Assembly: GCA_965228895.1 (NCBI GenBank)
Contig: OZ245842.1
Location: forward strand, 640,001 to 704,000
DNA length: 64,000 nucleotides
Direction: 5' to 3'
Source of the DNA: Alphaproteobacteria bacterium
Lineage (GTDB): Bacteria > Pseudomonadota > Alphaproteobacteria > SP197
Positions 1 through 42,484 of the stretch are shown piece after piece (position 1 is the first letter of the stretch; each line of letters begins with the position of its first letter). The notes beneath the pieces are model-generated. The model saw only the letters and a program-made list of their open reading frames with translations. It was not told where the DNA came from and made no database searches. The position numbers and the translations under genes were made by a program.

Positions 1-1
1 T

Positions 2-859
2 CGCGACCTCGTTATCGGCTATGACGGCAACGACATGCTGTTTGGCCGGGAGGGAGACGACCAGCTGTTCGGCGATGCCGGCAACGACAGGCTCTATGGT
101 CAGGACGGCAACGACATACTGGAAGGTGGCGATGGCAGGGATCAGCTGTTCGGCGGCGATGGAGACGACCTGCTGAAGGGTGATGCCGGCAACGACACGA
201 TCCATGGCAATGACGGCGACGACACGGCCTTTGGCGGTGCTGGCGATGACCGCATGTATGGTGGCGACGGCAACGATACGTTAATCGGCCAAAGCGGCGA
301 TGACCAGGCGTATGGCGGTGACGGCGATGATACGATCATGGGCGGATCCGACGACGACAGGCTCTATGGCGGCCGAGGAAACGATGTTGTCATGGGCGAG
401 AGTGGCGACGACGTTGTCTCCGGAGGGTCGGGCGACGACTTGGTCACCGGCGGTTCCGGTGACGATGACGTGCGTGGTGGCAGCGGCGATGACGACGTGC
501 AAGGTGGATCCGGTGACGACAAGGTTTACGGCGATGGCGGTGACGACATCGTTCACGGGGGTACAGGCGACGATATGATGTATGGCGGTTCTGGTGCCGA
601 TACCTTCGTCTTCAACGAAGGCGATGGCGCCGACATCATCATGGATTTCAGTCGCGGTTCGTCCAACGTCATCAAGGTGGATGCGGCCTTGGCATCCGAC
701 TTCTCGGATCTGGACACCACACAGGACAACGTTCTCGATGAGAACGACGATGCTATCAGTGTCAGTCGTGGCCGCCTGACCATTGACTTCGGCGAGGGTG
801 ACACCCTTACCGTCGTGGGCGTTCAGTCGCTGGCCGATGACGACATCACGTTCGGCTAG
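2..859 (+). CDS. RTX/hemolysin-type calcium-binding repeat protein, 5'-truncated by the window edge
   Basis: About 20 GGxGxDxLx nonapeptide repeats followed by a DTFVF..GADIIMDF C-terminal region typical of type I-secreted proteins; frame is open back to position 2. Confidence 0.9.
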   Translation, partial: RDLVIGYDGNDMLFGREGDDQLFGDAGNDRLYGQDGNDILEGGDGRDQLFGGDGDDLLKGDAGNDTIHGNDGDDTAFGGAGDDRMYGGDGNDTLIGQSGDDQAYGGDGDDTIMGGSDDDRLYGGRGNDVVMGESGDDVVSGGSGDDLVTGGSGDDDVRGGSGDDDVQGGSGDDKVYGDGGDDIVHGGTGDDMMYGGSGADTFVFNEGDGADIIMDFSRGSSNVIKVDAALASDFSDLDTTQDNVLDENDDAISVSRGRLTIDFGEGDTLTVVGVQSLADDDITFG

Positions 860-1110
860 CAGCGTCTGTCGTCAGAGCACGCGGGAGGGAGCTTAGCCCG
901 CCAAGGAGCGTTGTTAGGCTGCTGTACATGAAGGTGAAGGGCCGCATGCTGCGCACGTCCGTGTGGCCGCGTCCTTCGCCAGCCATAAAAAGTGGACGCG
1001 CATACAACTGAAACAATTATGCGCGGCTGCTGACACCGAACTGAAATTTCGGATCACAATCTTTCCTACCGTAGGACAACTTTTCGTGCGCTCGCCGCAC
1101 TTTCTTACGG

Positions 1111-1914
1111 ATGGAGATTGCCATGACCCATTGTAAATCAGTCCTTATCGCTCTTGTTGCCGCCGCTGGACTTTCGCTCGGCAGTGTGTCGAGCGCTCAG
1201 GCGGTACAGAGTACGTCGGAGGAGATTCCCCTCATCGAATGGGACACGACACTGGTCACGTTCCAGTTCGACAACGACAAGTTCCTCGGTCAGCGTTTCA
1301 CCGCCAAGTGCAAGCCGGCCAATGTCGACGACATGGACGAGACCGTCTATGGCACCGATGTCTATCCCAGCAACAATTCGATCTGCGTCGCCGCCGTGCA
1401 CGCTGGTCTGGTTGACCGGGACGGCGGCGTTGTCACCGTTCAGCTCAATCCCGGCGCCGAAGAGTACGTTGGCAGCAGCCGTAACGGCATTGATACACAG
1501 AGCCTGCCTGGAACACAGCGCAGCATGGTCTTTGTGACCGGACCCGAGGCTGGCGCCATCGATCAGGTGCTGCTCGACAACGTGCAGAGGATCGACTGGG
1601 ACACCAAGTTTACCCGCACAGGCCTTGCCTATGAGCAGTTGATCGGTCAGCACTTCGTCTTCAGCTGCCCGGAAGCGCCGAGCAATCTCAACTCCCGTCG
1701 GGTTGTCGGCACGGACTCCTATGCCTTTGACAGCATGATCTGCCGCGCCGCGGTCCATGCCGGTGCCATCACCACCGACGGTGGGCTGGTGACCGTCCAG
1801 ATGGATTCGGGCAAGGAGCGGCTGGTCGGCAGCATCCGCAACGGCATCGAGACCAAGGACGGCCCCGGCGGCCACCGCACGCTCTCGTTTGTCGAAGCGA
1901 CGACACAGAACTAG
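1111..1914 (+). CDS. Secreted protein with two tandem LCCL domains
   Basis: Signal peptide (..SSAQA); two LCCL motifs, VYGTDVYPSNNSICVAAVHAG and VVGTDSYAFDSMICRAAVHAG; start may be the ATG at 1123. Confidence 0.8.
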   Translation: MEIAMTHCKSVLIALVAAAGLSLGSVSSAQAVQSTSEEIPLIEWDTTLVTFQFDNDKFLGQRFTAKCKPANVDDMDETVYGTDVYPSNNSICVAAVHAGLVDRDGGVVTVQLNPGAEEYVGSSRNGIDTQSLPGTQRSMVFVTGPEAGAIDQVLLDNVQRIDWDTKFTRTGLAYEQLIGQHFVFSCPEAPSNLNSRRVVGTDSYAFDSMICRAAVHAGAITTDGGLVTVQMDSGKERLVGSIRNGIETKDGPGGHRTLSFVEATTQN

Positions 1915-1929
1915 TGTCGGGCAGCCGCG

Positions 1930-1961
1930 AAAAGGGCCGGTTTCTCACCGGCCCTTTTTTT
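1930..1961 (+). terminator. Rho-independent terminator
   Basis: aaaagggccggt-ttctc-accggccc-ttttttt directly after the LCCL stop. Confidence 0.9.
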
Positions 1962-1965
1962 GCGT

Positions 1966-2105
1966 CTAGAGCGGATCGTGCTTAGGTGGAACCGGTTGAC
2001 GGTTCCACCTAAGCACGTGAATCCGCCCTTTATCGATGAGTAGAGCAGATTCACCCGTCTTGATGGCATCGCAAAGCGATTCCATCAAAACGGGATCTGC
2101 TCTAG
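1966..2105. repeat. 140-bp CTAG-bounded double-hairpin intergenic element (CIR/RIME/MITE-like)
   Basis: Terminal inverted repeats ctagagcggatc / gatctgctctag (1 mismatch); perfect 18-bp internal stem 1977-1994/2000-2017; second imperfect hairpin 2042-2103. Confidence 0.75.
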
Positions 2106-2197
2106 GCCGTGGCAAATTGCCAAGTTGACAGTGCCGTTGACGACTTTGCCGTTGTAGAGTGAAGCCCCGAACCGGCTTCACAGAGATGATACGGCAG

Positions 2198-2980
2198 ATG
2201 GCAGGACACAACCTACTGCATGGCAAGCGCGCGCTCGTTACGGGAGCGGGAAGTGGCATCGGGCGGGCGATCGTGCACGCGTTCGCGCGTGAAGGCGCGC
2301 AGATTGCCGTCAGCGACGTCGACTTGGATCGTGCAAAGGCCGTCGCCGGCGAGATCGGTTCGGCGGGATCGCCGTTTCGCCTTGATGTCACCGATGCCGC
2401 GGAGACCAGGTCGGTCGTCGAGGCGGCTGTCGAGCAACTTGGCGGCCTGGATCTGGTGGCCGCGAATGCCGGGATTTCGACCATGAACGCTGTGGTCGAC
2501 CTGACCGAGGAGGAATGGGATGCCAACATGGCGGTCAACGCCAAGGGCGTCTTCCTGACCAACCGCGAAGCCGTGCGCCAATTCCTGGCGACGGGCACCA
2601 AGGGTGTCATCGTCAACACCGCGTCGCTTGCCGCCAAGATCGGGGCACCGTTCCTGGCCCACTACGCAGCCAGCAAGTTTGCCGTTGTCGGCTTTACCCA
2701 GTCGCTGGCCAAGGAGGTCGGCGAACATGGCATCCGCGTGAACGCTGTGTGTCCGGGCTACGTGCGGACATCCATGCAAGAGCGGGAACTCGCCTGGGAA
2801 GGCAAGCTGCGCGGGATGACGCCGGAGGCGGTCTATGACGAATACATCGCGACGACACCGCTGGGCCGCATCGAGGAACCGGAGGATGTCGCCGAGATCG
2901 TGGTCTTCCTGGCCAGCGACCTCTCGGGCTTCCTGACCGGTGAAGCGATCAACGCCAGCGGTGGCGTGTTGATGGATTAG
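2198..2980 (+). CDS. SDR-family NAD(P)-dependent oxidoreductase (polyol/sugar dehydrogenase-like)
   Basis: TGAGSGIG, NAG and YAASK motifs. Confidence 0.9.
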   Translation: MAGHNLLHGKRALVTGAGSGIGRAIVHAFAREGAQIAVSDVDLDRAKAVAGEIGSAGSPFRLDVTDAAETRSVVEAAVEQLGGLDLVAANAGISTMNAVVDLTEEEWDANMAVNAKGVFLTNREAVRQFLATGTKGVIVNTASLAAKIGAPFLAHYAASKFAVVGFTQSLAKEVGEHGIRVNAVCPGYVRTSMQERELAWEGKLRGMTPEAVYDEYIATTPLGRIEEPEDVAEIVVFLASDLSGFLTGEAINASGGVLMD

Positions 2981-3002
2981 TTCTCTTCTTTGGGGGATAT
3001 CG

Positions 3003-3812
3003 ATGGGTTGGTTGAAGGATCTGTTGGGCAGCGATAAGCCGGTCATTGCGATGGCGCATCTGCCGCCGCTGCCGGGCTCACCGCTGTATGATGCCAAGGG
3101 CGGCATGAACGCGATCGTCGATTATGTCTCGCGTGATATCGAGGCGCTGCAGGCCGGCGGCGTCGATTGCATCATGTTCGGCAACGAGGGCGATCGTCCT
3201 TATCTTCTGAAGGCCACACCGGAGAGCCTGGCAGCAATGACCTCGGCGGTCGCGGCGGTGAAGAACCAGATAATGGTGCCGTTCGGCGTCAACTATCTGT
3301 GGGATCCCGTCGCCACGGTGGCCCTGGCGGTCGCGACCGGTGCCGTGTTCGCACGCGAGATCTTCACCGGTGTCTATGATTCCGACATGGGCCTGTGGGC
3401 GCCCGATGCGGCAAGCGCCCTGCGTTTACGTCACGACCTCGGGCGCGACGACCTTAAGCTGCTGTTCAACATCAATGCCGAGTTTGCTGCGCCGGTCGGC
3501 GACCGGCCGATCGAAGCGCGCGCCAAGAGTGCCGTTTTCTCGTCACTCGCCGATGCGGTTTTGGTGTCCGGCCCCATGACCGGCCAGCCGGTTGATCAGT
3601 CTAACCTGCAGCGGGTCAAGGAAGCCGTCGGCGACACACCGGTCTTCGCCAACACCGGCTGCAACATCGACAACATCGCCGACATCCTGTCGACAGCCGA
3701 CGGATGCGTGATCGGGACCCATTTCAAGGTCGATGGCGACACCTGGAATCCTGTCGATTCCGACCGGGTGCGGCGTTTCATGGAGGTCGTGGCGAAGGTC
3801 CGCAACCCGTGA
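3003..3812 (+). CDS. BtpA/SgcQ-family TIM-barrel protein
   Basis: MAHLPPLPGSP, NEGDRPY, GVNYLWD, VSGPMTG, GTHFKVDG motifs. Confidence 0.85.
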   Translation: MGWLKDLLGSDKPVIAMAHLPPLPGSPLYDAKGGMNAIVDYVSRDIEALQAGGVDCIMFGNEGDRPYLLKATPESLAAMTSAVAAVKNQIMVPFGVNYLWDPVATVALAVATGAVFAREIFTGVYDSDMGLWAPDAASALRLRHDLGRDDLKLLFNINAEFAAPVGDRPIEARAKSAVFSSLADAVLVSGPMTGQPVDQSNLQRVKEAVGDTPVFANTGCNIDNIADILSTADGCVIGTHFKVDGDTWNPVDSDRVRRFMEVVAKVRNP

Positions 3813-5332
3813 GCCTGTTGCTCGGGCTGGATATCGGGACGACATCGACCATCGGTATTTTCATCGACACCGATGGCGTCGTCGTCGCGACGGCATCGCG
3901 TCCGAGCGAGCTGATTTCCAAGCACGCCAATTGGGCTGAGGAAGATCCTGCGCTCTGGTGGTCGAACGTCTGCGCCATCGTGCCCGAGCTCCTGGCGGCA
4001 ACGGGCGCTAAAGCTGATCAGATTGCCGCCGTCGGCGTCACCGGCATGGTGCCGACCGTGATCTTGCTGGATGAGGAGAATGAGCCGCTGCGCTACTCGA
4101 TCCAGCAGAACGATGCGCGCGCGATTGACGAAATCGACGCAATGAAAACCGCGATCGATCCCGACGACTACTTTGCGCGGACCGGCGGCAGCATCAACCA
4201 ACAGCTTGTCGCGCCGAAGCTGCGCTGGTTGGAACATCACGAACCCGACCACATGGCTCGGGCAAAAACGGTGTTGGGTTCCTATGACTACATCACCGCG
4301 CGCCTGACCGGCTCCCTTTCGGTCGAGCAGAATTGGGCGCTGGAAGCGGGGTTCCTGGATCTTGGTGGCGGCCGTCTTGATGACAGGTTGATTAACCTTG
4401 GCGGCATCACGCCAGACCACCTGCCGCCACTGCGCGCCTCCCACGATGTCGTCGGTGAGGTGACGGGGGACGCCGCGGCGCAAACCGGCTTGGCCGCCGG
4501 GACGCCAGTTGTGGCCGGGTGCGCCGATCATATCGCGTCGGCGTTTGTTGCCGGCGCATCGCGGGACGGCGATCTCGTGGTTAAGTATGGGGGCGCCGGC
4601 GATATCATGCTGTCGACAAGCCGCGCGGTCACCGATCCCCGCATGTTTATCGACTACCACATCGTGCCCGGCCTTTTTTTCACCAACGGCTGTATGGCTG
4701 CCAGCGGCAGCGTGCTGAACTGGATCGCTGCCCATCTCGCCAAGGCCGAGGCGGACGAGGCGCGGGCGGCCGGCCAGTCCGTGCACGCTTATCTGGACGA
4801 CCAGGCGCAAGCGCTGCCGCCCGGCGCCGGTGGTATTGTTTTGCTGCCCTATTTCCTGGGCGAAAAGACGCCGCTGCACGACCCCCACGCGCGCGGCACC
4901 CTGGTCGGCCTCGGCCTGCACCACGGGTTGCCCAATATCTGGCGATCCGCGCTCGAATCCGTCGCCTTCGGTTTTCGTCACCATACCGAGGTGTTTGCCG
5001 AGATGGGGCAGGATGTCGGGCGGGTTCTCGCCTGCGATGGCGGCGCGGCGAGCGATCTGTGGGTGCAGATCACGGCCGATGTTTTGGATAAACCGATCGA
5101 GCGCCTGCTGTCACACCCCGGTTCCAGTCTGGGCGCGGCCTTTGTCGCGGGCATGGGTGTAGGCGCACTCGACGATTGGGCGGCAATCACCGCCTATGTC
5201 GAGCCGGACCGGACTTTCGAGCCCGACGCCCGCAACGTTGAGATCTATCGCGATGCCTACGGTCTCTATCGCGAGACCTACGAACGGCTCAAGACGCTCT
5301 ATCCGCAGATCGGTGGTTTGCCCGCAGGCTGA
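3809..5332 (+). CDS. FGGY-family carbohydrate kinase (xylulokinase-like)
   Basis: LGLDIGTTS, PYFLGEKTP, DGGAAS motifs; GTG start overlaps upstream TGA. Confidence 0.9.
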   Translation: MSLLLGLDIGTTSTIGIFIDTDGVVVATASRPSELISKHANWAEEDPALWWSNVCAIVPELLAATGAKADQIAAVGVTGMVPTVILLDEENEPLRYSIQQNDARAIDEIDAMKTAIDPDDYFARTGGSINQQLVAPKLRWLEHHEPDHMARAKTVLGSYDYITARLTGSLSVEQNWALEAGFLDLGGGRLDDRLINLGGITPDHLPPLRASHDVVGEVTGDAAAQTGLAAGTPVVAGCADHIASAFVAGASRDGDLVVKYGGAGDIMLSTSRAVTDPRMFIDYHIVPGLFFTNGCMAASGSVLNWIAAHLAKAEADEARAAGQSVHAYLDDQAQALPPGAGGIVLLPYFLGEKTPLHDPHARGTLVGLGLHHGLPNIWRSALESVAFGFRHHTEVFAEMGQDVGRVLACDGGAASDLWVQITADVLDKPIERLLSHPGSSLGAAFVAGMGVGALDDWAAITAYVEPDRTFEPDARNVEIYRDAYGLYRETYERLKTLYPQIGGLPAG

Positions 5333-5337
5333 ACCGG

Positions 5338-6441
5338 TCAGTTGCCGGCAATCGCCTGACCGGTTTCGGCATCAAAGAAATGGGCGCGGTCGAGGTCGGC
5401 ATAGAGCTGAAGGTCGGAACCGGCGGATGCCGCGAAATCACGGCTTAGTCGCGCCGAAAGTTCCTGGCCGTTTGCCATGCTTGCGACGAGAACCACCTCT
5501 GGCCCCAAGGCTTCGACCGCGATCACATTGATCGCAATGGGGGCGTGGGCGGCGCTCGGCGGATCGACATAGAGATCCTCGGGACGAACGCCGAAGGTGA
5601 TCTTTGAACCCTTGTGGTTTGCCAAGGCCGCTTGCCGTTGCGACGGGATCGGTAGCTTGACGGGGCCAAGGTCCACCTCGTCGATGCCGTTGGGACCGCC
5701 AAGCTGGGCGTCGAGAAGGTTCATCGGCGGGCTTGCCAGGAAACCGGCGACAAAGGTGTCGACGGGGTTGCGGTAGACGTCGAGCGGCGGGCCGACCTGG
5801 ACGATTCTGCCGTCGCGCATGACGCAGATACGCTCACCCATCGTCATGGCTTCCACCTGGTCGTGGGTGACATGGACGACGGTGCGGCCGAGTTCTCGAT
5901 GGATCTTGATCAGTTCCGTGCGCATGGCCGCACGCAGCTTGGCGTCCAGGTTGGACAGCGGTTCGTCGAACAGGAAGGCCACGGGGTCGCGCACCAGGGC
6001 GCGGCCGAGCGCGACGCGCTGCTGCTGGCCGCCGCTCAGCTCCTTTGGGCGGCGCGCCAGCAGCTCCTCGATGCCCAACATGGTCGCGGTCTGCTTGATC
6101 CGCCGGTCGATTTCATCGCGCTCGACCTTGCGCAGCTTAAGGCCGAACGCCAGGTTACCGGAGACGGTCATATGCGGATAGAGCGCGTAGTTCTGGAACA
6201 CGACGGCAAGGTCCCGGTCGGCCGGATCGACGTTGTTGACGACCTTGCCGTCGATCGACATCTGGCCGGATGTGATCTCCTCAAGGCCCGCGATCATACG
6301 AAGCGTCGTCGACTTGCCGCAGCCCGACGGACCCAGAAGCACCATGAACTCGCCGTCCATGATCTCCAGGTCGATGTTGTCGACCGCCACGACATCCTGG
6401 CCGTAGATCTTGGTTATGCCCTCTAGAGTAATCTGCGCCAC
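5338..6441 (-). CDS. Carbohydrate ABC transporter ATP-binding protein (MalK/UgpC-like)
   Basis: GPSGCGKST, LSGGQQQR, DEPLSNLD, C-terminal TOBE-like region. Confidence 0.95.
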   Translation of the reverse strand: MAQITLEGITKIYGQDVVAVDNIDLEIMDGEFMVLLGPSGCGKSTTLRMIAGLEEITSGQMSIDGKVVNNVDPADRDLAVVFQNYALYPHMTVSGNLAFGLKLRKVERDEIDRRIKQTATMLGIEELLARRPKELSGGQQQRVALGRALVRDPVAFLFDEPLSNLDAKLRAAMRTELIKIHRELGRTVVHVTHDQVEAMTMGERICVMRDGRIVQVGPPLDVYRNPVDTFVAGFLASPPMNLLDAQLGGPNGIDEVDLGPVKLPIPSQRQAALANHKGSKITFGVRPEDLYVDPPSAAHAPIAINVIAVEALGPEVVLVASMANGQELSARLSRDFAASAGSDLQLYADLDRAHFFDAETGQAIAGN

Positions 6442-6453
6442 GGTGGCGAACTC

Positions 6454-7344
6454 CTATTTCAACGAACGCATGTAGCGGTAGAGGTAGGTGGTCAACACCA
6501 GGACAATGACCAGCAGCCCGACCGACATGGCCGACGCGCGTCCGATATCCAGGCCGAAGAACGCGGCGCGGTAGATGAAGTAGCTGATCAGGTCGGTTGC
6601 CGTACCCGGTCCGCCTTTCGTCATGATGAAGATGATGTCGAACGTCTTGATCGCGAAGATCAGGCGCAAGAGCAGGGCGACCATGATCACCGGCCGCATC
6701 AACGGCAGCGTGATGTGGATGAAACACCGTAGCGCGGACGCACCGTCCATCCGCGCGGCTTCATAGGGTTCGCGCGGCAGGGCAGCCAGCCCAGCCAGAA
6801 GCAGGATCGCCATGAACGATACCTGATGCCAGATGTCGACCATCACGACGGTCCAGAACGCATTCGTCGCGTTGCCCAGCCAGTTGACAGGACTGATGCC
6901 GGCAAGTCCGATCGCATAGTTGACGATGCCGAGCTCGGAATGCAGCAGCATGCGCCACAACAGGCCAACGACAACCGGGTTGACCAGAAGCGGCGCCAAC
7001 AAGATCAGGTAGTAGATCGTCTTGAAACGTTCGACCTTGTTAAGCGCCAGCGCGACCGAGAAACCGATGATGAACTCGATGACGACGGAGGCCAGCACGA
7101 ATTTGACCGTGACCCACATGGATCCCGGCAAGTACTCCTCGTCCGCCGCCTCTTCGTAGTTCTCCAAGCCGACAAAGTCCTCATGGACCGGCGTCAGCAG
7201 GGTGTAGTCGTAGAAACTGGTAAAGAGGGCAAAGATCAGCGGGAACATGATGACAAGCATCAACGCGGCAAGACCGGGCGCCGTGAGCCAATACCCAAAG
7301 CGCCGGTCCCGCCGCGCGAGCGTCAGCGTGTCAGCCGTTGCCAA
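6454..7344 (-). CDS. Carbohydrate ABC transporter permease (MalF-like)
   Basis: Hydrophobic helices, EAARMDGA loop; TTG start. Confidence 0.9.
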   Translation of the reverse strand: MATADTLTLARRDRRFGYWLTAPGLAALMLVIMFPLIFALFTSFYDYTLLTPVHEDFVGLENYEEAADEEYLPGSMWVTVKFVLASVVIEFIIGFSVALALNKVERFKTIYYLILLAPLLVNPVVVGLLWRMLLHSELGIVNYAIGLAGISPVNWLGNATNAFWTVVMVDIWHQVSFMAILLLAGLAALPREPYEAARMDGASALRCFIHITLPLMRPVIMVALLLRLIFAIKTFDIIFIMTKGGPGTATDLISYFIYRAAFFGLDIGRASAMSVGLLVIVLVLTTYLYRYMRSLK

Positions 7345-7368
7345 CGTTCTGAATCCGCTGTCTTACCG

Positions 7369-8649
7369 TTATTCCGAGATCTTGCCGTCTTTAACCAGCA
7401 AGGCTCGGAGTTCTTCTTGGGCGTCCGCCATGGCTTCGGGCACCGGTTTTTCGCCGGTCGCCGCCAGGTTCAACTCACGGCCGACTTCCTCGACGAACTC
7501 GGTCGTATAGGTGAAGACCGGGAAGTCCTGGGTGCCGGCAAGGATCTCACCCAAGATCGGATAATAGGGGCGCGCGGCCACCACATCCGGATCGGTGAAG
7601 ATCTGTGCCTGGGTCGGCGCGCCGCCCAGAAGCGCCCGCTCCTTGGCGATCTCCTGTGACTCCGCCCACTTGATGAACTCCCAAGCCGCGTCCTTGTTCG
7701 GGCTGGAATTGGGGATCGCCCAGCCCCAACCGCCATTCAGGCCACCGCCCGGATTGGGCGCGATGCCGACCTTGCCGGCGACCGTCGAGGCTTCCGGATC
7801 CTCGAATCCGGCATAGAGAATGTTGAACGTGACAAAACTATAGGCCTTGCCCTGGGCCATCACGTTGAACGCCTCGTCGAAACAATAGGCTTCCGAACCC
7901 GGAGGACTGTAGTTCTCCACGGCTTCGCGATAGTACTCCATCGCCCGGATCGCCTCGTCACTGTCGAGCAGCGGGTTCCAGTTCTCGTCGTGATAACGGC
8001 CACCCTGGGAATAGAGGTAGTTCGCCCACTGCATGGAGATGCAGTCGCCGCGCTGACCCTGGATGACAGTGCCGAAGAAGTCGCGTTCGCCGTCGCCGTT
8101 TTCGTCACGGGTGAAGAACTCGACCTGCTTCCAGTATTCGTCCCACGTCTCGGGAACCCTCAAGTCGATACCGTAGGCTTCCTTGAACGCCGCCTGTTCG
8201 GCGGGATCGTCGATCAGATCCTGACGATAGATGACGGCCATGGAGTAGTTATAGAACGGCAGCATATAGAGCGTGCCGTCGACGCGGCCGACCAGATCCA
8301 TCAGCTTGGGCACATAGACGTCGACATCGACGCCGTCGCGTGCGACCAGGTCGTCCAGCGGCATCAGCCAGCCGGCCTTGGTGAACTCGCCGACCCAATA
8401 GAAGTCAACGACGATCAGGTCGTAGCTGCCTTCCGGCGCGATGAGCTGGGGCACCAGCTTCGAATGCATGTCGATATAGCTGATCGCCTCGATCTCGACG
8501 TCGATGCCGGTTTCTTCCACGAACTGCGGCAACAGTTCCTGGATGTAACGGGTGTCCGGCACCGTTTCCATAAGGATACGGATGGTCTCCGCCTTGGCGA
8601 CACTGACGCTCAGCGCCAATGCCGCGATTACCGCTAGGACAAACTTCAT
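7369..8649 (-). CDS. Sugar/polyol ABC transporter substrate-binding protein
   Basis: Signal peptide (..VAKA), family-1 SBP motifs PETWDEY and GGWGWAIP; RBS gagga. Confidence 0.9.
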   Translation of the reverse strand: MKFVLAVIAALALSVSVAKAETIRILMETVPDTRYIQELLPQFVEETGIDVEIEAISYIDMHSKLVPQLIAPEGSYDLIVVDFYWVGEFTKAGWLMPLDDLVARDGVDVDVYVPKLMDLVGRVDGTLYMLPFYNYSMAVIYRQDLIDDPAEQAAFKEAYGIDLRVPETWDEYWKQVEFFTRDENGDGERDFFGTVIQGQRGDCISMQWANYLYSQGGRYHDENWNPLLDSDEAIRAMEYYREAVENYSPPGSEAYCFDEAFNVMAQGKAYSFVTFNILYAGFEDPEASTVAGKVGIAPNPGGGLNGGWGWAIPNSSPNKDAAWEFIKWAESQEIAKERALLGGAPTQAQIFTDPDVVAARPYYPILGEILAGTQDFPVFTYTTEFVEEVGRELNLAATGEKPVPEAMADAQEELRALLVKDGKISE

Positions 8650-8734
8650 AACTCACGTCCTCCCTGTTTGAAGTTTTGCTCCACGTGTGCCCGGCCATGG
8701 ATCGTCCCGTCCCCGGCCAGGCGAACTCGTTAAG

Positions 8735-9553
8735 TCATTTCAGCGCCCCCAGTGAGAGTCCCTTGATGAGATAGCGCCGCATGAAGGGCAGCAGGATGAA
8801 GACTGGCAGGATGGCACAGATGGTCGCGGCCGAAAGCAAAGCGATATCGACGCCGCGATGGGTCTGGAATGATGACAGACCGACTGGCAGCGTGTTGGTT
8901 GACGGCCCACTGATGATCAACGCGAACAGGAACTCGTTCCAGCTCAAGATGAAGGACAACAGGCCGGCAGCCAGGATTCCGGGCGCCGCAACCGGCAAGG
9001 TGATGCGCAGGAAAGCCTGGAAGCGCGACGCGCCGTCGATCCTTGCGGCTTGTTCCAAAAGCGCGACATCGCCTTCGAAGAAGGCCACCAGAAGCCAGGC
9101 CAGGAACGGCAAGCTGATCGTCATGTGGGCGATGATCAGGCCGGGCAATGTGTTCAGGAGCGAAGCCTTCAAGAACAACGTGAACAACGGCAGCACCAGG
9201 ATCACCGGCGGCAGCATCTGACTCGACAAAACGAACAGGCGCAGAGGCAGGCCGCCGGTGTTGTAGCGCGCGAACGCATAGGCAATCGACGCCGCCATCG
9301 GCAGCGCGATGATCGTCGCGCCAAGCGCGACCGTGACGCTGTTCAGAAAGTAGTTGAAGAACGGGTAACCGGTGAAGATCTCGACAAAATTAGCAAGGCT
9401 GGCCTGGCCCCATTCCGGCGGTATCTTATAGGCCGTCAGCTTGTCGGTAAGCGCGACGCGAAGTAGCCATAGGAGCGGCAACAGGATGGTTGCGCTGAAG
9501 GCGATCAGAACACCATGCGGCAAAAGCCATGACAACACCCCCCGACCGCGCAT
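8735..9553 (-). CDS. Carbohydrate ABC transporter permease (MalG-like)
   Basis: EQAARIDGA, SWNEFLFA, TLPVGL motifs. Confidence 0.9.
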   Translation of the reverse strand: MRGRGVLSWLLPHGVLIAFSATILLPLLWLLRVALTDKLTAYKIPPEWGQASLANFVEIFTGYPFFNYFLNSVTVALGATIIALPMAASIAYAFARYNTGGLPLRLFVLSSQMLPPVILVLPLFTLFLKASLLNTLPGLIIAHMTISLPFLAWLLVAFFEGDVALLEQAARIDGASRFQAFLRITLPVAAPGILAAGLLSFILSWNEFLFALIISGPSTNTLPVGLSSFQTHRGVDIALLSAATICAILPVFILLPFMRRYLIKGLSLGALK

Positions 9554-9781
9554 TGCCTATCCCCAAGACAAAAACAGCGTTACCGATGACCGGTGATGGT
9601 CACCAAAAAGGGCATTCCCCACGTTCACCTATCACCCCGATCCACCCCGTCGCCCGGTTCATGACACGTGCATTCAGGCGCTGGGTGATTTGCTAAATGT
9701 CAACAGGTAAGATCTCTTGTCATCCTAGCGCAATGGCAGGGCAGCACAAGGCGATACGTCACTTCTGAGGATCCAAATACG

Positions 9782-12049
9782 ATGAATAAATCACCGTCGG
9801 CCAACCGATGGAAACGCTACGACGTGTGGGATGACCGTCCCTTGCGCCTCGACGGATTTGCACCCGATAGCCCCGAGGACGGGTTCCGTGCAACCGACAG
9901 CCCGACCGACCCGTCACCCTCACTGCGTATCGATGATGGCGCGGTCGTCGAGATGGATGGCGTGGAGGCCGACCGCTTCGATATGATCGACGCCTTCATT
10001 GCGCGCTATCACCTTGATCTCGAGGTGGCGGAGGAAGCGATGGCCGTCGAGAGCGCGGATTTCGCCCGCCGCCTGATCGACGTCAATGTACCGCGTGATG
10101 ACGTTATCCGGTTGGCGCGCGGCATGACGCCGGCGAAACTGTGCGAGGTCATGGCGTGCCTGAACACGCTGGAGCTTTCGTTTGCGCAGACCAAACTTCG
10201 CGCGCGCAAGGCGCCGGGCAATCAGGCGCACGTGACCAACGCGAAGGATGATCCCGTGCAGATGGTTGCCGATGCGGCGACGGCGGCGGCCATGGGATTT
10301 GATGAAGTCGAGACCACCATGCGGGTCGCGCGCAATTCATGGTCCAATGCGCTTGCCTGTTTGATCGGCGCGACGGTCGGCAAACCGGGAACCCTTGTGC
10401 AGTGCGCCTGCGAAGAAGCCGAAGAGCTTAAGCTTGGCATGGCAGGCCTCACCTCCTATGCCGAGACCATCTCGGTCTATGGCACCGAGGGGTCGTTCAT
10501 CGACGGCGATGATACGCCGTGGTCGAAGGCGTTTTTGATTGCGGCCTATGCGTCGCGCGGCATCAAGTCGCGGTGCACGTCCGGTGGCGGCTCCGAACTC
10601 CTGATGGGGTTCCACGATGCCAAGTCACTGCTGTACCTCGAAGCGCGATGTCTTTGCGTACAGCGCGGCATGGGTGTTCAGGGTACGCAAAACGGCGGCA
10701 TAGACGGCGCGCCGGTAACGTCGTCGATCGCCGGCGGCATGCGCGAAATCCTGGCTGAAAACGTTCTGGCCGCTTTGTTGGACCTGGAATGCGCGTCTGG
10801 CAACGACACGCGTATCAGCGAGTCGGAGATCCGCGTCGGCGCCAAGATCATGCCCCATCTCATGTCCGGCACCGACTTCCTTTGCTCCGGTTTCGGGTCG
10901 GTGCCGGCTTACGACAACTCGTTCGCTGCGTCGCTGTTCAACGCCGAGGAGATCGAGGATTTTCTGACACTGCAACGCGATTTCGAGTTGGACGGCGGTC
11001 TGCGGCACATGCCGGAAGATGATGTCATGACATTGCGCCGCCGCGCTATTGATGCGTTGAAAGCCGTCTATGGCGAGCTGGGCCTTGCCGAGCTGAGCGA
11101 GCAACAAAAGACAAGCGCGTGTTATGCCAGCGGCTCCCAAGACACCGTGGCGTTTCGTTTCACGGAAGTCGGCCGGATCTCCGAACAGATCCGCGACCGC
11201 GGTATCACCTTGATCGACGTCATCGGCGCGTTGGCGCGAAGCGGGTTTGAAGATGTCGCGGAAAACCTGCTGGCACTGTGGCGCCAGCGCGTCAGCGGCG
11301 ATTATCTGCAGACAGCGGCGATCGTACGGGATGGCGTGGTCGTCAGCGCCGTCAACGATCCCAACGACTATGCCGGACCGCAGACGGGCTATCGCCTTTC
11401 ACCGGACCGCCACCAAGAGATCGCCCGGGTACGCGGCATCATGACCAAGGATCAGATCGTCGAGCTGGAGGAGCGCCATGCGACAGCGGAACGGCGGCGC
11501 TACCACATGGAGCCGGTCGGTCCGGCCGCAAAGGGCAATGGCGTTAACGAGGTTGTCATCGGGCTCAGCCCTGCCTTCGGAGAACGCCTGCACCGCACGA
11601 CATCGGGACTCTATCTGTCGCAAGTGCTGGCGGCCTTGGTCGACGGTATCAAGGAAGGTGGCGGGACAGCCCATGTGGTCCGCATACGCCACACCGCCGA
11701 CACATCGTTCCTGGGCCTGACGGCGGCTAGACTTTCCAACTCCGGAATCGGTATCGGCATTCAGGCGAAGGGAACGGCCGTCATTCACACCGCGCAGGAT
11801 GAACCGCATATGAACCTTGAGCTTTTTTCCCAGGCGCCGATTACGACTCTCGACCATTATCATGGCATGGGCCGCAATGCTGCCGCCTATGCGCAGGGTC
11901 TCGATCCCGAGCCGATCAGTATTCCCTATCGCGGCGAGGCATTGGGCGCGCGCTATCATGTTCAGACGTCGCTGATCTATGCCATCGAAACGGCGATGTT
12001 GGACCCCGACGCCGAACCGCAAACGTTGGAGGTGACGTTTCATGGCTGA
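9782..12049 (+). CDS. Adenosylcobalamin-dependent diol/glycerol dehydratase homolog, large (alpha) + medium (beta) subunit fusion
   Basis: PduC motifs QAHVTN, YAETISVYGTE, DGDDTPWSKAFL, SAVNDPNDYAGP, then in-frame PduD motifs EVVIGLSPAFG, GIGIGIQAKGT, NLELFSQAP. Confidence 0.9.
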   Translation: MNKSPSANRWKRYDVWDDRPLRLDGFAPDSPEDGFRATDSPTDPSPSLRIDDGAVVEMDGVEADRFDMIDAFIARYHLDLEVAEEAMAVESADFARRLIDVNVPRDDVIRLARGMTPAKLCEVMACLNTLELSFAQTKLRARKAPGNQAHVTNAKDDPVQMVADAATAAAMGFDEVETTMRVARNSWSNALACLIGATVGKPGTLVQCACEEAEELKLGMAGLTSYAETISVYGTEGSFIDGDDTPWSKAFLIAAYASRGIKSRCTSGGGSELLMGFHDAKSLLYLEARCLCVQRGMGVQGTQNGGIDGAPVTSSIAGGMREILAENVLAALLDLECASGNDTRISESEIRVGAKIMPHLMSGTDFLCSGFGSVPAYDNSFAASLFNAEEIEDFLTLQRDFELDGGLRHMPEDDVMTLRRRAIDALKAVYGELGLAELSEQQKTSACYASGSQDTVAFRFTEVGRISEQIRDRGITLIDVIGALARSGFEDVAENLLALWRQRVSGDYLQTAAIVRDGVVVSAVNDPNDYAGPQTGYRLSPDRHQEIARVRGIMTKDQIVELEERHATAERRRYHMEPVGPAAKGNGVNEVVIGLSPAFGERLHRTTSGLYLSQVLAALVDGIKEGGGTAHVVRIRHTADTSFLGLTAARLSNSGIGIGIQAKGTAVIHTAQDEPHMNLELFSQAPITTLDHYHGMGRNAAAYAQGLDPEPISIPYRGEALGARYHVQTSLIYAIETAMLDPDAEPQTLEVTFHG

Positions 12050-12473
12050 CAAACGCGATCAGGTCGAAGCGCTCTATCCGGCCAGCGAAAAACAGCAGGA
12101 TCGATTGACCACACCCGGCGGCCACACACTCAGCGATCTGACACTGCCGAACGTGTTGGCGGGAGGGCTTGGGACCGGTGATCTCGGTATCTCACCGGAT
12201 GCCTTGCGCCTGCAACGCGATGTCGCCGAGGCGACCGGCCGGTCTTGTTTGGCAGAGAACTTCGAGCGCGGTGCGGAACTGACCGGTGTCTCTCAGGACG
12301 AGATCTTCGCGACCTACAATCTGTTGCGTCCGGGACGCGCCGAAAGCAAACAGGAGCTTCTCGACCTCGCGCGGCGCTATCGTGACGAACACAACGCGCC
12401 CGAGATCGCCGGTCTGATCGAAGACGCCGCGGAAACGTACGAGAGACGTGGGCTGTTTCGTACCCGCTACTAG
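12042..12473 (+). CDS. Diol/glycerol dehydratase small (gamma) subunit
   Basis: YP..EK, TPGG..L..LTL, LAENFERGAEL, YNLLRP, AAETYERRGL; overlaps the upstream gene. Confidence 0.9.
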   Translation: MADKRDQVEALYPASEKQQDRLTTPGGHTLSDLTLPNVLAGGLGTGDLGISPDALRLQRDVAEATGRSCLAENFERGAELTGVSQDEIFATYNLLRPGRAESKQELLDLARRYRDEHNAPEIAGLIEDAAETYERRGLFRTRY

Positions 12474-12534
12474 TTAGCGAGGGCGCCGACGACGCCTATC
12501 AATTGCCCAACATCAACGTCTGGGGAGGAAACCG

Positions 12535-12936
12535 TTGGTTACGCATGAGAGTTTCACCAAGTGGCTCGACGCCTATGGCAGTGCCTGGGTTAACCAGAAC
12601 CCGGACGGCACCCTGGCTCTCTTCACCGATGACGCCACCTATATGTACACGCCGTTCCACAAGATCATGAAAGGCAAGGACGAGATTCGCCGCTACGTCG
12701 AGAAGGGCGCCGTTGGTCTACAGGAGGATATCGAATTCGACTACGAGGTCCTGGCCGTCACGGACGCGTACGGTATTAACCGATGGAAAGCGGCCTTGAC
12801 GTGGAAGGAGACCGGCGAGCGCCTCCACTTTGACGGCATCTATCAGGTCTTCTTGAACGACGACAACCTATGCCATCGCTTCGACGAGTGGTGGCATGCA
12901 AATCCACCGCTACCCGAAGACAACGCACCGGAATAG
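12535..12936 (+). CDS. SnoaL-like/NTF2-fold protein
   Basis: WLDAYGSAW, LFTDDATY, G.DEIRRY, FDEWW pattern; RBS gagga before TTG. Confidence 0.75.
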   Translation: MVTHESFTKWLDAYGSAWVNQNPDGTLALFTDDATYMYTPFHKIMKGKDEIRRYVEKGAVGLQEDIEFDYEVLAVTDAYGINRWKAALTWKETGERLHFDGIYQVFLNDDNLCHRFDEWWHANPPLPEDNAPE

Positions 12937-12971
12937 GGACTTTCGGCTGGTGATGCCGCGTTACAATGCAC

Positions 12972-14504
12972 TCAAGCGATCGCGCCGACGACGCGTACGC
13001 GGGCGCGCAGGCTGTTGCCCGGCATATAGGCAAGCGGCAGGTCCTCAACCTCGACCAACTCCAGGCTTTCGGCATCCGCGCCCGCCTCGACCGCACGTCT
13101 TTCGGCGATACCACGCGCCTCGGCGATAGCGTCTTCGCGCGACAGACCTTGAAAGATCTGGTCGCACTCACCGGAGATCTGGGCAATCGCAGCGCCGACC
13201 GCATTGGCGACCTCGCCGTGTTCGACATGGATGACGTCGCTGACGCCGGCAATCTGATCAGGCACCAGAAAGGCGCCGCCGCCGACGGCAATGACCGGCA
13301 CGTCGCCGGCTTCGGTCTTCATGCGGTCAATTGCGACCGCGGTCATCTCGCGCATGGCCGCTATTGTTTCCTCGACCATCGCCTTGGGCAGGTCATCGAC
13401 CTTGTCGCGATCACCCAGGTCAATCAGGCCCTGGGCAACGGCGATGTCGGTTGCCGTCAGGTCGGGCCCGCCAAAGACGAGCCCGCGCTCGGTCAGCCGG
13501 TAGCCCGTACTCTCGGGGCCGATGGTGAGGGGATCTCTACCAATGAGCGTGCCGCCGCCGAGCGCGATGGAAAGTAGATCCGGCATCCGGAACAAGGTTC
13601 TGACACCGCCAATCTCGACGACGTTGTTGGCTTCGCGCGGAAAACCCGATTTCAGCATGCCGATATCGGTCGTTGTGCCGCCGACATCGACGACCATGGC
13701 GTCGGAAAGCCGGGACAGGAATGCCGCGCCGCGCATACTGTTGGTCGGGCCTGAAGCGAAACTGAACACCGGATACTTTTCGGCGACGTCGGCCAGCATC
13801 ACCGTGCCGTCGTTCTGGGTCAGGTAAAGCTGCGCTGTGATACCGCTGGTTTCGATCGCTTTGGTGAAGGCGGCTGTCGTCTTCTTGGCGAGGTCCTGCA
13901 GGCTGGCGTTCAGCAACGTGGCGTTCTCGCGTTCCAAGAGCCCGATGCGACCGAGCGCGCTGGAGCGGGTAACCGCGACGTCCGGACATTCCTCGGCAAG
14001 GATCGCGGCGGCCTGGTCCTCCAACTCGCTCGTCAGCGGTGAAAAAACAGAGGTGACGCCGACAGCCGTATAGCCGGCATCGCCAATGCGCTTTGCCGCC
14101 TCGCGCATGCCGGCTTCGTCAAACGGGGCAATGGGACGGCCGTCATACTCGTGGCCGCCCTGCAGCATGACGATCTCGCCCCGGACCTCCTCAGCGAGAT
14201 CGTCCGGCCAATCGATGAACGGCTCCAATGATGCGCTGGCCGGCAGGCAGATGCGAATGGCCGCGACCTTCGCGACGTCGCGCCGCTGGGCAACGGCGTT
14301 GGTGAAATGCGTGGTGCCGATCATGACGGCATCCAGGCCGGTCGGGTCGGCCGATGTCTGGGCCAAGACCTGCTTCAGGGCCTTGGTAATGCCCGACATC
14401 ACGTCTTCGGTCGTCGGCGTCTTGACCGAGCCGACGATGACATCGTCCTCGACCAGGACCGCGTCCGTGTTGGTGCCGCCGACGTCGATGCCGATGCGTT
14501 TCAT
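12972..14504 (-). CDS. Hydantoinase/oxoprolinase A-family protein (short type usually linked to DUF917)
   Basis: GIDVGGTNTD, SGPTNSMRGA, VDVGGTTTD, VANAVGAA. Confidence 0.9.
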   Translation of the reverse strand: MKRIGIDVGGTNTDAVLVEDDVIVGSVKTPTTEDVMSGITKALKQVLAQTSADPTGLDAVMIGTTHFTNAVAQRRDVAKVAAIRICLPASASLEPFIDWPDDLAEEVRGEIVMLQGGHEYDGRPIAPFDEAGMREAAKRIGDAGYTAVGVTSVFSPLTSELEDQAAAILAEECPDVAVTRSSALGRIGLLERENATLLNASLQDLAKKTTAAFTKAIETSGITAQLYLTQNDGTVMLADVAEKYPVFSFASGPTNSMRGAAFLSRLSDAMVVDVGGTTTDIGMLKSGFPREANNVVEIGGVRTLFRMPDLLSIALGGGTLIGRDPLTIGPESTGYRLTERGLVFGGPDLTATDIAVAQGLIDLGDRDKVDDLPKAMVEETIAAMREMTAVAIDRMKTEAGDVPVIAVGGGAFLVPDQIAGVSDVIHVEHGEVANAVGAAIAQISGECDQIFQGLSREDAIAEARGIAERRAVEAGADAESLELVEVEDLPLAYMPGNSLRARVRVVGAIA

Positions 14505-15607
14505 GCTGCGTCCTTCCCATTCGTCAGGGGGTGAGGGGAGTGATAGTCCATGTCATAGCCGAACGCCCGTGGCCCGACCACTTTGAGGGCGTGGGGCGTG
14601 GTCAGGACCGGTGCGGCGGGCAGTGAGACGATGACGACACGCTGGCCGTAGCGGATCGATTCCGTGCCGATCGCTTCGCCGTTGACCGCATCCAGAATGC
14701 AAATCAGATCGGGCACCATGACGCGGATCTCATTGTCGATGCTGCCGATCGTGAACTCGTTTTGAAAGTCGACGTCGAAGGTCTGACCGGCATAGCCGTC
14801 ACTTCCCGCGATGCGTGCCTTGCCCCGCACGAAGCCGTCCGTCGTGCGCCGGGCGACATCGACCACCTTGCCGCTGAACAAACGTAGACCGGCTTCGGCA
14901 TCAAGTACCGCATCACTGGGGTCCAGGTGACGACGCCGGGCCTCGGTGACCGCGCGGCCCAGGCGTATGGCGCGGCTGATGGAGCCGATGACGGCGTGGT
15001 CGCGAATCTGACGGCCGGTGCGCGGCGGTTTGCAGGTCGCGATCATCGCGCCGGTTTCCGTACAAAGCTTTCGGCCGATCCGCTCGGTCCATCGCGCGCT
15101 CGCGGTCTTCAGCAGCAGGACCTCGTTGTCACGGATGTCGGCCATGGCGATCGGATAAAGCGGCAGGTCGGCAATGACGAAGCTGGACATCTGCATTTCC
15201 GGGAAGGCGCGCCCGCGCGGGTCGGCGTCAAGCAGAGGAATATCCAACAGGGCCGCAACGACCAGAGGCAGAATGCCGTTTTCACCACCGATCTCCGACG
15301 ACATGACGGCGCGGAACGGCCGGCCCGTCAGATCCTGCATCATCTCGATAGGCCGGCAGATCTGCGCGGGATCGGGCAGTCGTTCCTTGGTGACCAGCGG
15401 CGCACCCATGAAACCGACCTCGGCGACCAGATCGTCGTTATCGAGGTCACATGGCTCGATCATTCCGACCCGCTTGCCCTCGCCGTAGAGTTTCTGAATG
15501 TTCAGCAGCTCGAGATAAGGATGGGTCCCACCACCGGTCCCCAAAATGCCCGTGCCGATCGCCAGAGCGGGCAGGTCATCGGCTTCGATGGGACGACGGC
15601 CCGTCAT
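14501..15607 (-). CDS. DUF917-family protein (paralog 3)
   Basis: GTGGG, MGAP, EIGGENG, DADPRGRAFPE, FQNEF, VPDLIC, VGPRAFG. Confidence 0.85.
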   Translation of the reverse strand: MTGRRPIEADDLPALAIGTGILGTGGGTHPYLELLNIQKLYGEGKRVGMIEPCDLDNDDLVAEVGFMGAPLVTKERLPDPAQICRPIEMMQDLTGRPFRAVMSSEIGGENGILPLVVAALLDIPLLDADPRGRAFPEMQMSSFVIADLPLYPIAMADIRDNEVLLLKTASARWTERIGRKLCTETGAMIATCKPPRTGRQIRDHAVIGSISRAIRLGRAVTEARRRHLDPSDAVLDAEAGLRLFSGKVVDVARRTTDGFVRGKARIAGSDGYAGQTFDVDFQNEFTIGSIDNEIRVMVPDLICILDAVNGEAIGTESIRYGQRVVIVSLPAAPVLTTPHALKVVGPRAFGYDMDYHSPHPLTNGKDAA

Positions 15608-17780: not shown

Positions 17781-17789
17781 GGCGGCCTC

Positions 17790-18383
17790 CTAATCCAGTT
17801 TTTCGCCGCGGGACCAGCGTCGGGTCGCGGCAGCGACGCGGTGGCCGAACAAACGCGCCGTCAATCGATCGGTTTCGGGCGGCGAGGCGGGCGTCACCGC
17901 CTTGCCATCGGAATCCGCCATGGCGCCCAGGTAGCCGCCCTGGATGTTGTAACCTTCGGGCTTGCCCTGGCCGGTTCGGATGTCATTCATGGGATCCATA
18001 CCGACCCAGACCATGGCGTGCTGGGCGGCATAGACGGAGAGCGCCATCAAGACGCTTTGTTTGTCGCCGCTGGGTTCGCCGGCACAGGTGAAGCCGGCCG
18101 CGATCTTGTCGCGCCAACGCATGTCACCCCAGAAGGCGTCGGTCGCGTCCAGAAAAGCTTTCAGTTCGGCCGAGATGCCGCCGAAGTGGGTCGGACAGCC
18201 AAAGACGATGGCGTCGGCCTCGAACAGGCTGTCCCAGGGGACCGGATCGACGGCGACATCAACCAAAAGCGTCCTGACATCGCCGCCGTTCTCGGCGCCT
18301 TCTGCGATTTCCTTGGCGATGGCGGCGGTGTGACCCTTGCCGCTGTGAAAGCAGATGGCGATTGTGGTTTTTGCTTCGGCCAT
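17790..18383 (-). CDS. Flavodoxin-fold WrbA-like NAD(P)H oxidoreductase
   Basis: HSGKGHT, FGCPTHFGG, SGDK motifs. Confidence 0.85.
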   Translation of the reverse strand: MAEAKTTIAICFHSGKGHTAAIAKEIAEGAENGGDVRTLLVDVAVDPVPWDSLFEADAIVFGCPTHFGGISAELKAFLDATDAFWGDMRWRDKIAAGFTCAGEPSGDKQSVLMALSVYAAQHAMVWVGMDPMNDIRTGQGKPEGYNIQGGYLGAMADSDGKAVTPASPPETDRLTARLFGHRVAAATRRWSRGEKLD

Positions 18384-18391
18384 GGCAGGCG

Positions 18392-24424: not shown

Positions 24425-24575
24425 AGTCCGGGCACCTTGCCCCGGTGATGCTCAAATGTCTAACCGAGGTATCCGACCCCGACTCGACACTCACGCAAGC
24501 GGCTGGACTCGCCGGTCGGACCCGTGTTGAGGTGGTCGCACGCACCGGTAGAACGGTGACACGAGGGAGGGTGTG

Positions 24576-25325: not shown

Positions 25326-25328
25326 GTC

Positions 25329-31692: not shown

Positions 31693-31702
31693 GGGAGAAC
31701 GT

Positions 31703-41177: not shown

Positions 41178-41218
41178 GACATACATGCCTCCGCCTGAGC
41201 AAATTGCCGTTGAATACT

Positions 41219-42475: not shown

Positions 42476-42484
42476 GGCCGCGCG

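Follow-up and report, generated by a model that had tools for sequence, protein, structure and literature searches.

We analysed a stretch of 64,000 nt from an alphaproteobacterial genome (contig OZ245842.1, positions 640,001 to 704,000; hereafter the window), in which a homologue of the adenosylcobalamin (AdoCbl)-dependent diol and glycerol dehydratases is encoded beside a sugar-type importer of the ATP-binding cassette (ABC) class and beside genes for a short-chain dehydrogenase/reductase (SDR), a BtpA/SgcQ-family protein and an FGGY-family sugar kinase. An earlier note on this DNA had described a dehydratase transcribed divergently from a CUT1 importer, which in turn converges on the SDR, BtpA and FGGY genes, and the open reading frames (ORFs) with their Pfam and NCBIfam matches place every gene that it named at the positions it had given (Table 1).

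Gene organization of the locus

The SDR, BtpA and kinase genes are convergent with the importer genes, the stop codons of the two sets being only 5 nt apart. The SDR frame begins with GTG at 2159, and the ATG at 2198 is the likely start; the GTG start of the kinase gene overlaps the stop codon of the BtpA gene (GTGA). The CUT1 importer is complete, with one SBP_bac_1 protein, two BPD_transp_1 permeases and a MalK-type ATPase, and its order from the promoter is permease, binding protein, permease and MalK/UgpC-type ATPase. On the other side of the divergent spacer, the gene for the fused alpha-beta subunit and that for the gamma subunit overlap by 8 nt, and the matches to PF02286, PF02288 and PF02287 all exceed the family cut-offs. 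The SnoaL-like gene that follows was considered as a pathway member and set aside; no counterpart adjoins the dehydratase in any related locus.

A simple scan of positions 1900-13100 gave no sigma-70-like promoter, and terminator-like sites in the same segment were no commoner than in shuffled sequences. No Rfam element, cobalamin riboswitch included, scored above threshold in window 1-20000, and no operator was discernible in the divergent spacer, which is poorly conserved in comparison with two related loci, L006 and L078 (three loci compared).

Table 1. Features of the window and of three related loci that carry a relative of the dehydratase.
Record	Feature	Positions	Strand	Matches and remarks
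Window	SDR oxidoreductase	2198-2980	+	Pfam adh_short_C2, 2e-59; NCBIfam glucose 1-dehydrogenase subfamily, 223 bits (cut-off 215)
Window	BtpA/SgcQ-family protein, TIM barrel	3003-3812	+	PF03437, 3.4e-80, 270 bits; TIGR00259, 273 bits (cut-off 153)
Window	FGGY-family sugar kinase	3809-5332	+	FGGY_N and FGGY_C
Window	ABC ATPase, MalK/UgpC type	5338-6441	-	ABC_tran, OB_MalK, TOBE_2; UgpC subfamily, 462 bits
Window	ABC permease, UgpA/MalF-like	6454-7344	-	BPD_transp_1
Window	Periplasmic solute-binding protein, CUT1 type	7369-8649	-	SBP_bac_1, 3e-42
Window	ABC permease, MalG-like, first gene of the importer operon	8735-9553	-	BPD_transp_1
Window	Divergent intergenic spacer, importer/dehydratase	9554-9781		228 nt
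Window	AdoCbl diol/glycerol-dehydratase homologue, alpha-beta fused	9782-12049	+	755 aa; PF02286, 746 bits; PF02288, 82 bits
Window	Dehydratase gamma (small) subunit	12042-12473	+	PF02287, 1.4e-36, 126 bits
Window	SnoaL-like small protein	12535-12936	+	SnoaL_2, 1.2e-9
Window	RTX calcium-binding repeat protein	35-859	+	Open at the left end of the window
Window	Protein with two LCCL domains	1111-1914	+	
Window	Hydantoinase-A-like gene, three tandem S-Me-THD/DUF917 paralogues, ABC importer	12972-19471	-	
Window	Fourth DUF917 gene and Asp/Glu/hydantoin racemase	24573-26453	+	
Window	Homogentisate pathway	30325-32950		
Window	MTTB-family methyltransferase gene near sarcosine-oxidase-like genes	37898-39355; 41204-45708	-; +	
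L026 (family of the window)	Dehydratase remnant, first 252 residues	9923-10678	-	SDR-BtpA-FGGY-importer module intact
L047 (metagenome contig)	Fused dehydratase, permeases, SDR, APH kinase, class III aminotransferase-like gene, aldehyde dehydrogenase, microcompartment shell protein	283-12259	+	
L025	Alpha-beta-gamma triple fusion, 913 residues, then reactivase pieces and aldehyde dehydrogenase	9204-15378	+	

Active site and substrate pocket of the dehydratase

The fused protein can be aligned over 743 residues to glycerol dehydratase structures (E = 2.6e-222). An alignment to Salmonella PduC (from a named plasmid record) was made with this protein, 120 relatives from databases and those of the fetched loci; the residue roles of the PduC-type enzyme are taken from a review (PMC7674605). 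Gln141, His143, Glu170, Glu221, Thr222, Gln296, Asp335, Ser362 and Phe374 show no variation among the window protein and the 120 relatives, and this set comprises the catalytic residues and those binding the metal and the two hydroxyls of the substrate. The window protein is a genuine member of the diol-dehydratase family, and its radical machinery is intact as judged from these residues.

In the pocket near C3 of the substrate the picture is a different one. S301D, C302G and I303A occur in 120/120 relatives, T337R and M373S each in 117 of the 120, and position 336, a Gln in PduC, is occupied by Ala (65), Thr (54) or Ser (1). The window protein itself has Asp301, Gly302, Ala303, Thr336, Arg337 and Ser373, and thereby keeps neither of the two C3-pocket residues of the glycerol and propanediol enzymes, Ser301 and Gln336. 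According to the review, these two residues of the classical enzyme touch the C3 hydroxyl of glycerol, and their mutants S301A and Q336A show slower glycerol-induced suicide inactivation; the title of the mutant study cited there also mentions activity on longer-chain 1,2-diols (PMC7674605). From these data the signature can be read either as pointing to a different, larger substrate or as resistance to inactivation.

The latter of these readings belongs to the main rival explanation, namely that the enzyme is an ordinary dehydratase of a small diol (glycerol, 1,2-propanediol or ethylene glycol), a modular pair of genes which has come to lie beside clusters for various carbohydrates or amines and whose pocket avoids suicide inactivation and makes a reactivase unneeded. 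Slower inactivation of the two mutants and a family without reactivase agree with such an enzyme, as does the uniformity of the pocket signature in unrelated gene contexts. An aerobic Mycobacterium, moreover, is reported to dehydrate ethylene glycol by a B12 enzyme (PMC12214560). The changes in the pocket, however, go beyond the two positions linked to inactivation, five positions being shifted to smaller or charged residues, and, with the gene contexts described below also considered, we judge an ordinary small-diol enzyme to be somewhat unlikely.

We also examined how the signature is distributed among representatives of clusters at 50% identity; out of 150 listed, the 25 that reach a length of 480 residues were put into one alignment (30 sequences) with PduC, the protein of the window and three proteins from the loci. 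Among the representatives listed, another fused cluster (P0242) retains Ser301 and Cys302, and a third group has Asp301 together with Leu337; the fusion and the pocket signature are therefore separable traits, since P0242 is fused and yet keeps the classical residues. The clade to which the window protein belongs has thousands of database matches and ranges over soil and marine alphaproteobacteria and Chloroflexota.

Missing reactivase and other classical equipment

The host genome (5.53 Mb in a single contig, 98.7% complete) encodes a single dehydratase, and the reactivase domain PF08841 was found nowhere in it. The same was true of all genomes with the two-gene fused form that we searched (reactivase in 0/5, the host and four more), while the genome G399 has a triple-fused alpha-beta-gamma relative with reactivase and aldehyde dehydrogenase genes adjoining it. 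Neither shell proteins nor an acylating aldehyde dehydrogenase were detected by Pfam in window 1-20636; two genes with bacterial microcompartment (BMC) domains are present at G000:C1:4151527-4152749, about 3.5 Mb from the dehydratase. No aldehyde dehydrogenase of any kind was among the Pfam matches of the scanned window ORFs, the remaining genome not having been searched for one. It had been stated earlier that the reactivases, aldehyde dehydrogenases and shells of the Pdu and Dha systems are lacking here, and this statement holds at the locus and, for PF08841, throughout the genome. It had also been assumed that glycerol enters cells through facilitators; entry solely by this way is probably not general for rhizobia.

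Several genes elsewhere in the host genome are relevant to the function of the locus. Adenosyltransferases of both the PduO type and the CobA type are encoded, and so is a canonical glycerol kinase, whose presence speaks against a role of the window genes in the use of a small diol such as glycerol. A second and distant BtpA-family paralogue with 36% identity is located at G000:C1:3955918-3956673 (-).

Conservation of the gene neighbourhood

Our collection of 72 loci that encode a relative of the dehydratase drew on genome contigs (17), a plasmid (1), a sample of the class (6), the order (4) and metagenomes (44). When those sharing 98% nucleotide identity were merged, 66 distinct loci were left, 31 of them having a flank of at least 10 kb. 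A neighbour was counted as window-type when it had at least 50% identity to the SDR, BtpA or FGGY protein of the window or at least 55% to its ABC proteins. On this definition, window-type genes adjoin the dehydratase in 10/66 distinct loci and in 7/31 of those with the longer flank. The SDR orthologues in related loci have 57-93% identity, and an SDR gene near the dehydratase is the most constant partner in proteobacterial loci. That the SDR, BtpA, kinase and ABC genes accompany the dehydratase in other organisms, a point which the earlier note had left to be decided by neighbourhood analysis, is thus borne out, and in several gene orders.

The layout of the window itself recurs in L006, in L078 and in a contig of the same genus (L086), and L006 is fully syntenic with the window at 72-87% identity. 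In L049/L050 and L082, and partly in L054 and L070, the genes form one operon in the order SDR-BtpA-FGGY-dehydratase-gamma, which is followed by a thiamine pyrophosphate (TPP) enzyme and a convergent importer. The gap between the kinase and dehydratase genes is about 16 nt in L049/L050 and L082, and the dehydratases there are only 64-66% identical to that of the window, the BtpA proteins 78-81%. The database protein P0024 is a single frame of 1269 aa in which a kinase (68% to that of the window) is joined by a short linker to a dehydratase (66%); its gene order is that of the operon form, and a sequencing error at the stop codon is possible.

Further arrangements occur in other loci. In L085 the importer, dehydratase and gamma genes are co-directional with about 13 nt between the ATPase and the dehydratase, and SDR-BtpA-FGGY genes are nearby; in L089 importer and dehydratase are separated by 4.8 kb. 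L044 has dehydratase, gamma, SDR and importer in one direction, a convergent kinase and SDR and a DeoR regulator upstream, BtpA not having been found there; DeoR regulators adjoin the module in both L027 and L044. A plasmid of Agrobacterium cucumeris carries a homologous importer, whose binding protein has 40% identity with that of the window, and here the dehydratase genes separate the second permease gene from the ATPase gene; downstream of the dehydratase genes are an SDR, an aminoglycoside phosphotransferase (APH)-type kinase and a class III aminotransferase-like gene. The window-type contexts form two separate clades (SH-aLRT 99) in a quick maximum-likelihood tree of 49 rows, calculated without bootstrap.

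Chance does not account for the cluster, whose gene set recurs in other organisms; the coupling of the dehydratase to the importer, SDR, BtpA and FGGY genes is real and conserved. The same recurrence bears on two of the rival explanations. Tight operon coupling to BtpA and a xylulokinase-like kinase, with one fusion, speaks against a small diol, neither the kinase nor BtpA having an obvious role after 3-hydroxypropanal, propanal or acetaldehyde, and the dehydratase is found within or right behind operons of sugar-type importers. A functional link might, on another view, be absent altogether, the dehydratase and the SDR, BtpA, FGGY and ABC genes just sharing a variable catabolic island. The window is indeed a mosaic of unrelated catabolic clusters, module and dehydratase are distant from each other in another genus of the family (G426, 1.9 Mb apart) and in another family, and L026 retains only a remnant of the dehydratase beside the intact module. 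This remnant lies within a 9.7-kb insert which contains genes for an esterase, a TPP enzyme, an amidohydrolase, a Rieske oxygenase and a formamidase and which separates the SDR-BtpA-FGGY genes from the importer. Several gene orders, shared operons, one fusion and two separate tree clades, however, are hard to reconcile with mere cohabitation, as is co-occurrence at the level of genomes, and the absence of any link appears quite improbable to us.

Co-occurrence across genomes

Among 33 genomes of the order of the window, which all belong to one family, the dehydratase was found in 11 and a BtpA orthologue in 19. BtpA was present in 10 and absent in 1 of the genomes with the dehydratase, and present in 9 and absent in 13 of those without it. 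Fisher's test gives p = 0.009, a value that overstates the association, the genomes being related to one another. When 401 genomes were sampled from the class, the dehydratase was present in 7, of which 6 also carry a BtpA orthologue at 69-71% identity or more; the one exception is the triple-fused form linked to a reactivase. Within the genus of the window, both modules are present in two genomes and neither is in one.

Partners of the dehydratase in other loci

Loci with other partners provide information on the possible substrates of the family. In six of them (L002-L004, L007, L017 and L072) the gamma gene is directly followed by that of an SDR, and a second sugar-type importer, a 2-hydroxyacid dehydrogenase and a glycerol-kinase-like FGGY protein (491 bits, under the cut-off of 590) are also encoded. 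A true glycerol kinase and a GlpA-like dehydrogenase stand beside the dehydratase in L062, and L010, from Anaerolineales, has an Opp-type importer, a glycerophosphodiesterase, GFO/IDH/MocA oxidoreductases and a xylose-isomerase-like barrel. Such glycerol-linked neighbours (the GlpK-like kinase of the L004 type, GlpK with the GlpA-like protein of L062 and the glycerophosphodiesterase of L010) are frequent enough to count in favour of an enzyme of small diols, and so does the occurrence of the L047 dehydratase in a microcompartment locus, the other branch of which should presumably yield propanal. The triple fusion of L025 is flanked by PuuA-like and PuuD-like genes upstream and by FHA, PP2C and penicillin-binding genes downstream.

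The neighbours of further relatives include Pot-type importers, a PuuD-like amidotransferase, an isochorismatase, an amine oxidase and an arginase-family gene. These contexts, together with the replacement of Ser301 by Asp in 120/120 relatives, raise the question of whether Asp301 binds a charged group of the substrate, which would then be an amino-diol or a diol charged in another way, the sugar-type neighbours in the window being secondary. Several relatives adjoin an APH-type kinase with a class III aminotransferase-like enzyme, and the Pot-type ABC importers, PuuD-like amidotransferase, amine oxidase and arginase-family gene of the others would also suit such a substrate. Positions 2198-12936, however, contain no amine-handling gene, the binding protein of the window resembles binders of sugars and polyols, and the amine context is in part that of arginine catabolism (5-guanidino-2-oxopentanoate decarboxylase), which may be unrelated; a charged substrate is, in our estimate, very improbable. 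The TPP enzyme near some relatives was tried as an IolD-like protein and dropped, as it scores acetolactate-synthase-like and in one locus as 5-guanidino-2-oxopentanoate decarboxylase; there is no TPP enzyme in the window.

Binding protein, kinase and BtpA

The closest solved chains of the binding protein are 1eu8 (trehalose/maltose), 5iai (sugar) and 4rya (sorbitol, E = 2.4e-33), a series that does not fix the ligand. The best model of the kinase is XylB (xylulokinase) with 300 bits, which is under the cut-off of 380, and the protein is very close to PDB 3ifr, an FGGY kinase from structural genomics (E = 6e-146).

For BtpA, phmmer found no relatives in PDB, and a profile made from 25 members gives a weak match (E = 2.7e-4) to tryptophan synthase alpha, in its phosphate-binding C-terminal part, and a still weaker one (E = 0.09) to heptaprenylglyceryl-phosphate synthase. 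These matches fit a barrel that may hold a phosphorylated substrate, for example the product of the kinase. Invariant polar residues are present across members of the BtpA family, and the window protein, at 169 bits, stays under the cut-off of 400 bits of the equivalog for BtpA of photosystem I biogenesis. In full-text literature we found no biochemical function for BtpA/SgcQ.

Relation to known systems

B12-dependent diol dehydratases are textbook radical enzymes, which are thought to be specific for C2-C3 diols and to depend on reactivases, and which usually work in microcompartments in anaerobic metabolism. The window enzyme shares with PduCDE, PddABC and DhaB123 all three subunit families and the catalytic and metal-binding residues. 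It differs from them by the alpha-beta fusion, by the lack of a reactivase in the genome and by the rebuilt C3 pocket, and its cluster has an ABC importer, an SDR, a kinase and BtpA as neighbours in place of shell genes and aldehyde dehydrogenase. The fused clade would therewith depart, if the predictions from its sequences are right, from all three habits, namely restriction to C2-C3 diols, need for a reactivase and association with anaerobic microcompartments.

Two other kinds of loci should be compared. Polyol clusters of the sorbitol/mannitol, ribitol/arabitol and erythritol types combine a CUT1 ABC importer with an SDR polyol dehydrogenase and an FGGY ketose kinase. The window resembles them in its sugar-type importer with a sorbitol-binder-like binding protein, in its SDR and in its xylulokinase-like kinase; beyond these, it contains a B12 radical dehydratase and a BtpA-family protein, and it has no classical epimerase or isomerase. 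Actinobacteria have microcompartment loci for amino-alcohols (aminoacetone/1-amino-2-propanol), which are similar to the loci of two relatives of the dehydratase, L047 and the Agrobacterium plasmid, with their SDR, APH-type kinase and class III aminotransferase-like enzyme and, in L047, also an aldehyde dehydrogenase and a shell protein. The window cluster, unlike these, has none of those genes.

Natural alpha-beta fusions have been recognised by sequence analysis in Mesorhizobium loti and Mycobacterium smegmatis (Liu et al. 2010, cited in PMC7674605), and three such genes of M. smegmatis are listed in PMC8088520 and PMC4881515 without known roles. By their description, these enzymes have the same two-gene architecture of alpha-beta plus gamma as that of the window. 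The fused architecture is therefore already known from sequence surveys, and the enzyme system itself is not a new kind. Our literature searches found no experimental work on the substrate of fused enzymes, and no mention of the pocket signature, of the family-wide lack of reactivase or of a link with an ABC importer, a kinase and BtpA.

Proposed pathway

The gene set suggests a breakdown route, not described before, for a polyol-like nutrient. We favour the reading that the region is one catabolic system, a joint pathway of the polyol type with a reactivase-independent fused dehydratase that has a rebuilt pocket, and we give this a probability of about 0.42. The operon form and the fusion, in which the dehydratase is combined with a pentulose-type kinase and BtpA, favour such a joint pathway.

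In the pathway that we propose, the importer would take up a polyol-like solute bearing a terminal vicinal diol, and the dehydratase would convert -CHOH-CH2OH to -CH2-CHO, either on the free solute or on a phosphate ester made by the kinase, giving a 2-deoxy sugar or its phosphate. The SDR would carry out a redox step and the kinase would provide a phosphate handle, with which BtpA, in keeping with its likeness to phosphate-binding barrels, could move the phospho-intermediate towards central metabolism. The dehydratase might serve as an accessory entry or branch that broadens the range of substrates usable by the module.

Several observations weigh against a strict joint pathway. Of the 19 order genomes that bear BtpA, 9 carry the module but not the dehydratase, several of these 9 being complete, and a bare BtpA-FGGY pair occurs in further families that lack the dehydratase. 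One genus of another family has the module as an operon of its own at a locus apart from the dehydratase; the order of this stand-alone operon is SDR-permease-SBP-permease-ATPase-BtpA-FGGY, SBP being the solute-binding protein, and it has a DeoR regulator. Conversely, 24/31 well-flanked dehydratase loci do not have the module, and a BtpA orthologue was found in 0/5 Anaerolineales genomes bearing the dehydratase, three of which have only paralogues at 30-36%. The identical pocket signature across very different contexts fits a common small diol as well as a polyol, and the order of the steps and the role of BtpA in the scheme above are guesses. Because the module stands alone in many genomes, we regard the dehydratase as an add-on or accessory branch and not as a core step.

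The idea from which this work started, that a larger polyol or sugar is imported, dehydrated by radical chemistry and then processed by the SDR, kinase and BtpA, therefore stands in part. The coupling in other lineages, the lack of a reactivase and the replacement of the contacts to the C3 hydroxyl in 120/120 relatives speak for it; the independence of the two modules from each other, seen in both the 9/19 genomes and the 24/31 loci mentioned, does not allow the dehydratase to be made an obligate member of one route.

A more specific form of the favoured reading may also be put forward, although we consider it rather unlikely in its entirety: aerobic alphaproteobacteria would use a reactivase-free dehydratase to make a 2-deoxy sugar from an imported sugar alcohol or its phosphate, and BtpA/SgcQ would cleave or isomerise the phospho-deoxy sugar. 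If this were true, it would give diol dehydratases their first substrate class other than C2/C3 compounds and the BtpA family its first biochemical function. The clade might also offer an explanation of how aerobes can keep a B12 radical enzyme in use without repairing it.

Surroundings in the window

At the left end of the window, an RTX calcium-binding repeat protein and a protein with two LCCL domains precede the SDR gene; in a genome of the same genus, a gene 89% identical to that of the LCCL protein adjoins the SDR. Downstream of the dehydratase follows an unrelated cluster with a hydantoinase-A-like gene, three tandem S-Me-THD/DUF917 paralogues and an ABC importer, and a fourth DUF917 gene with an Asp/Glu/hydantoin racemase is encoded a few kb further on. 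This cluster looks like one for an N-heterocycle or a thiohydantoin-like compound, as far as its gene content can tell. Farther to the right are the homogentisate pathway and an MTTB-family methyltransferase gene near sarcosine-oxidase-like genes, and on account of these the window is described above as a mosaic of catabolic clusters.

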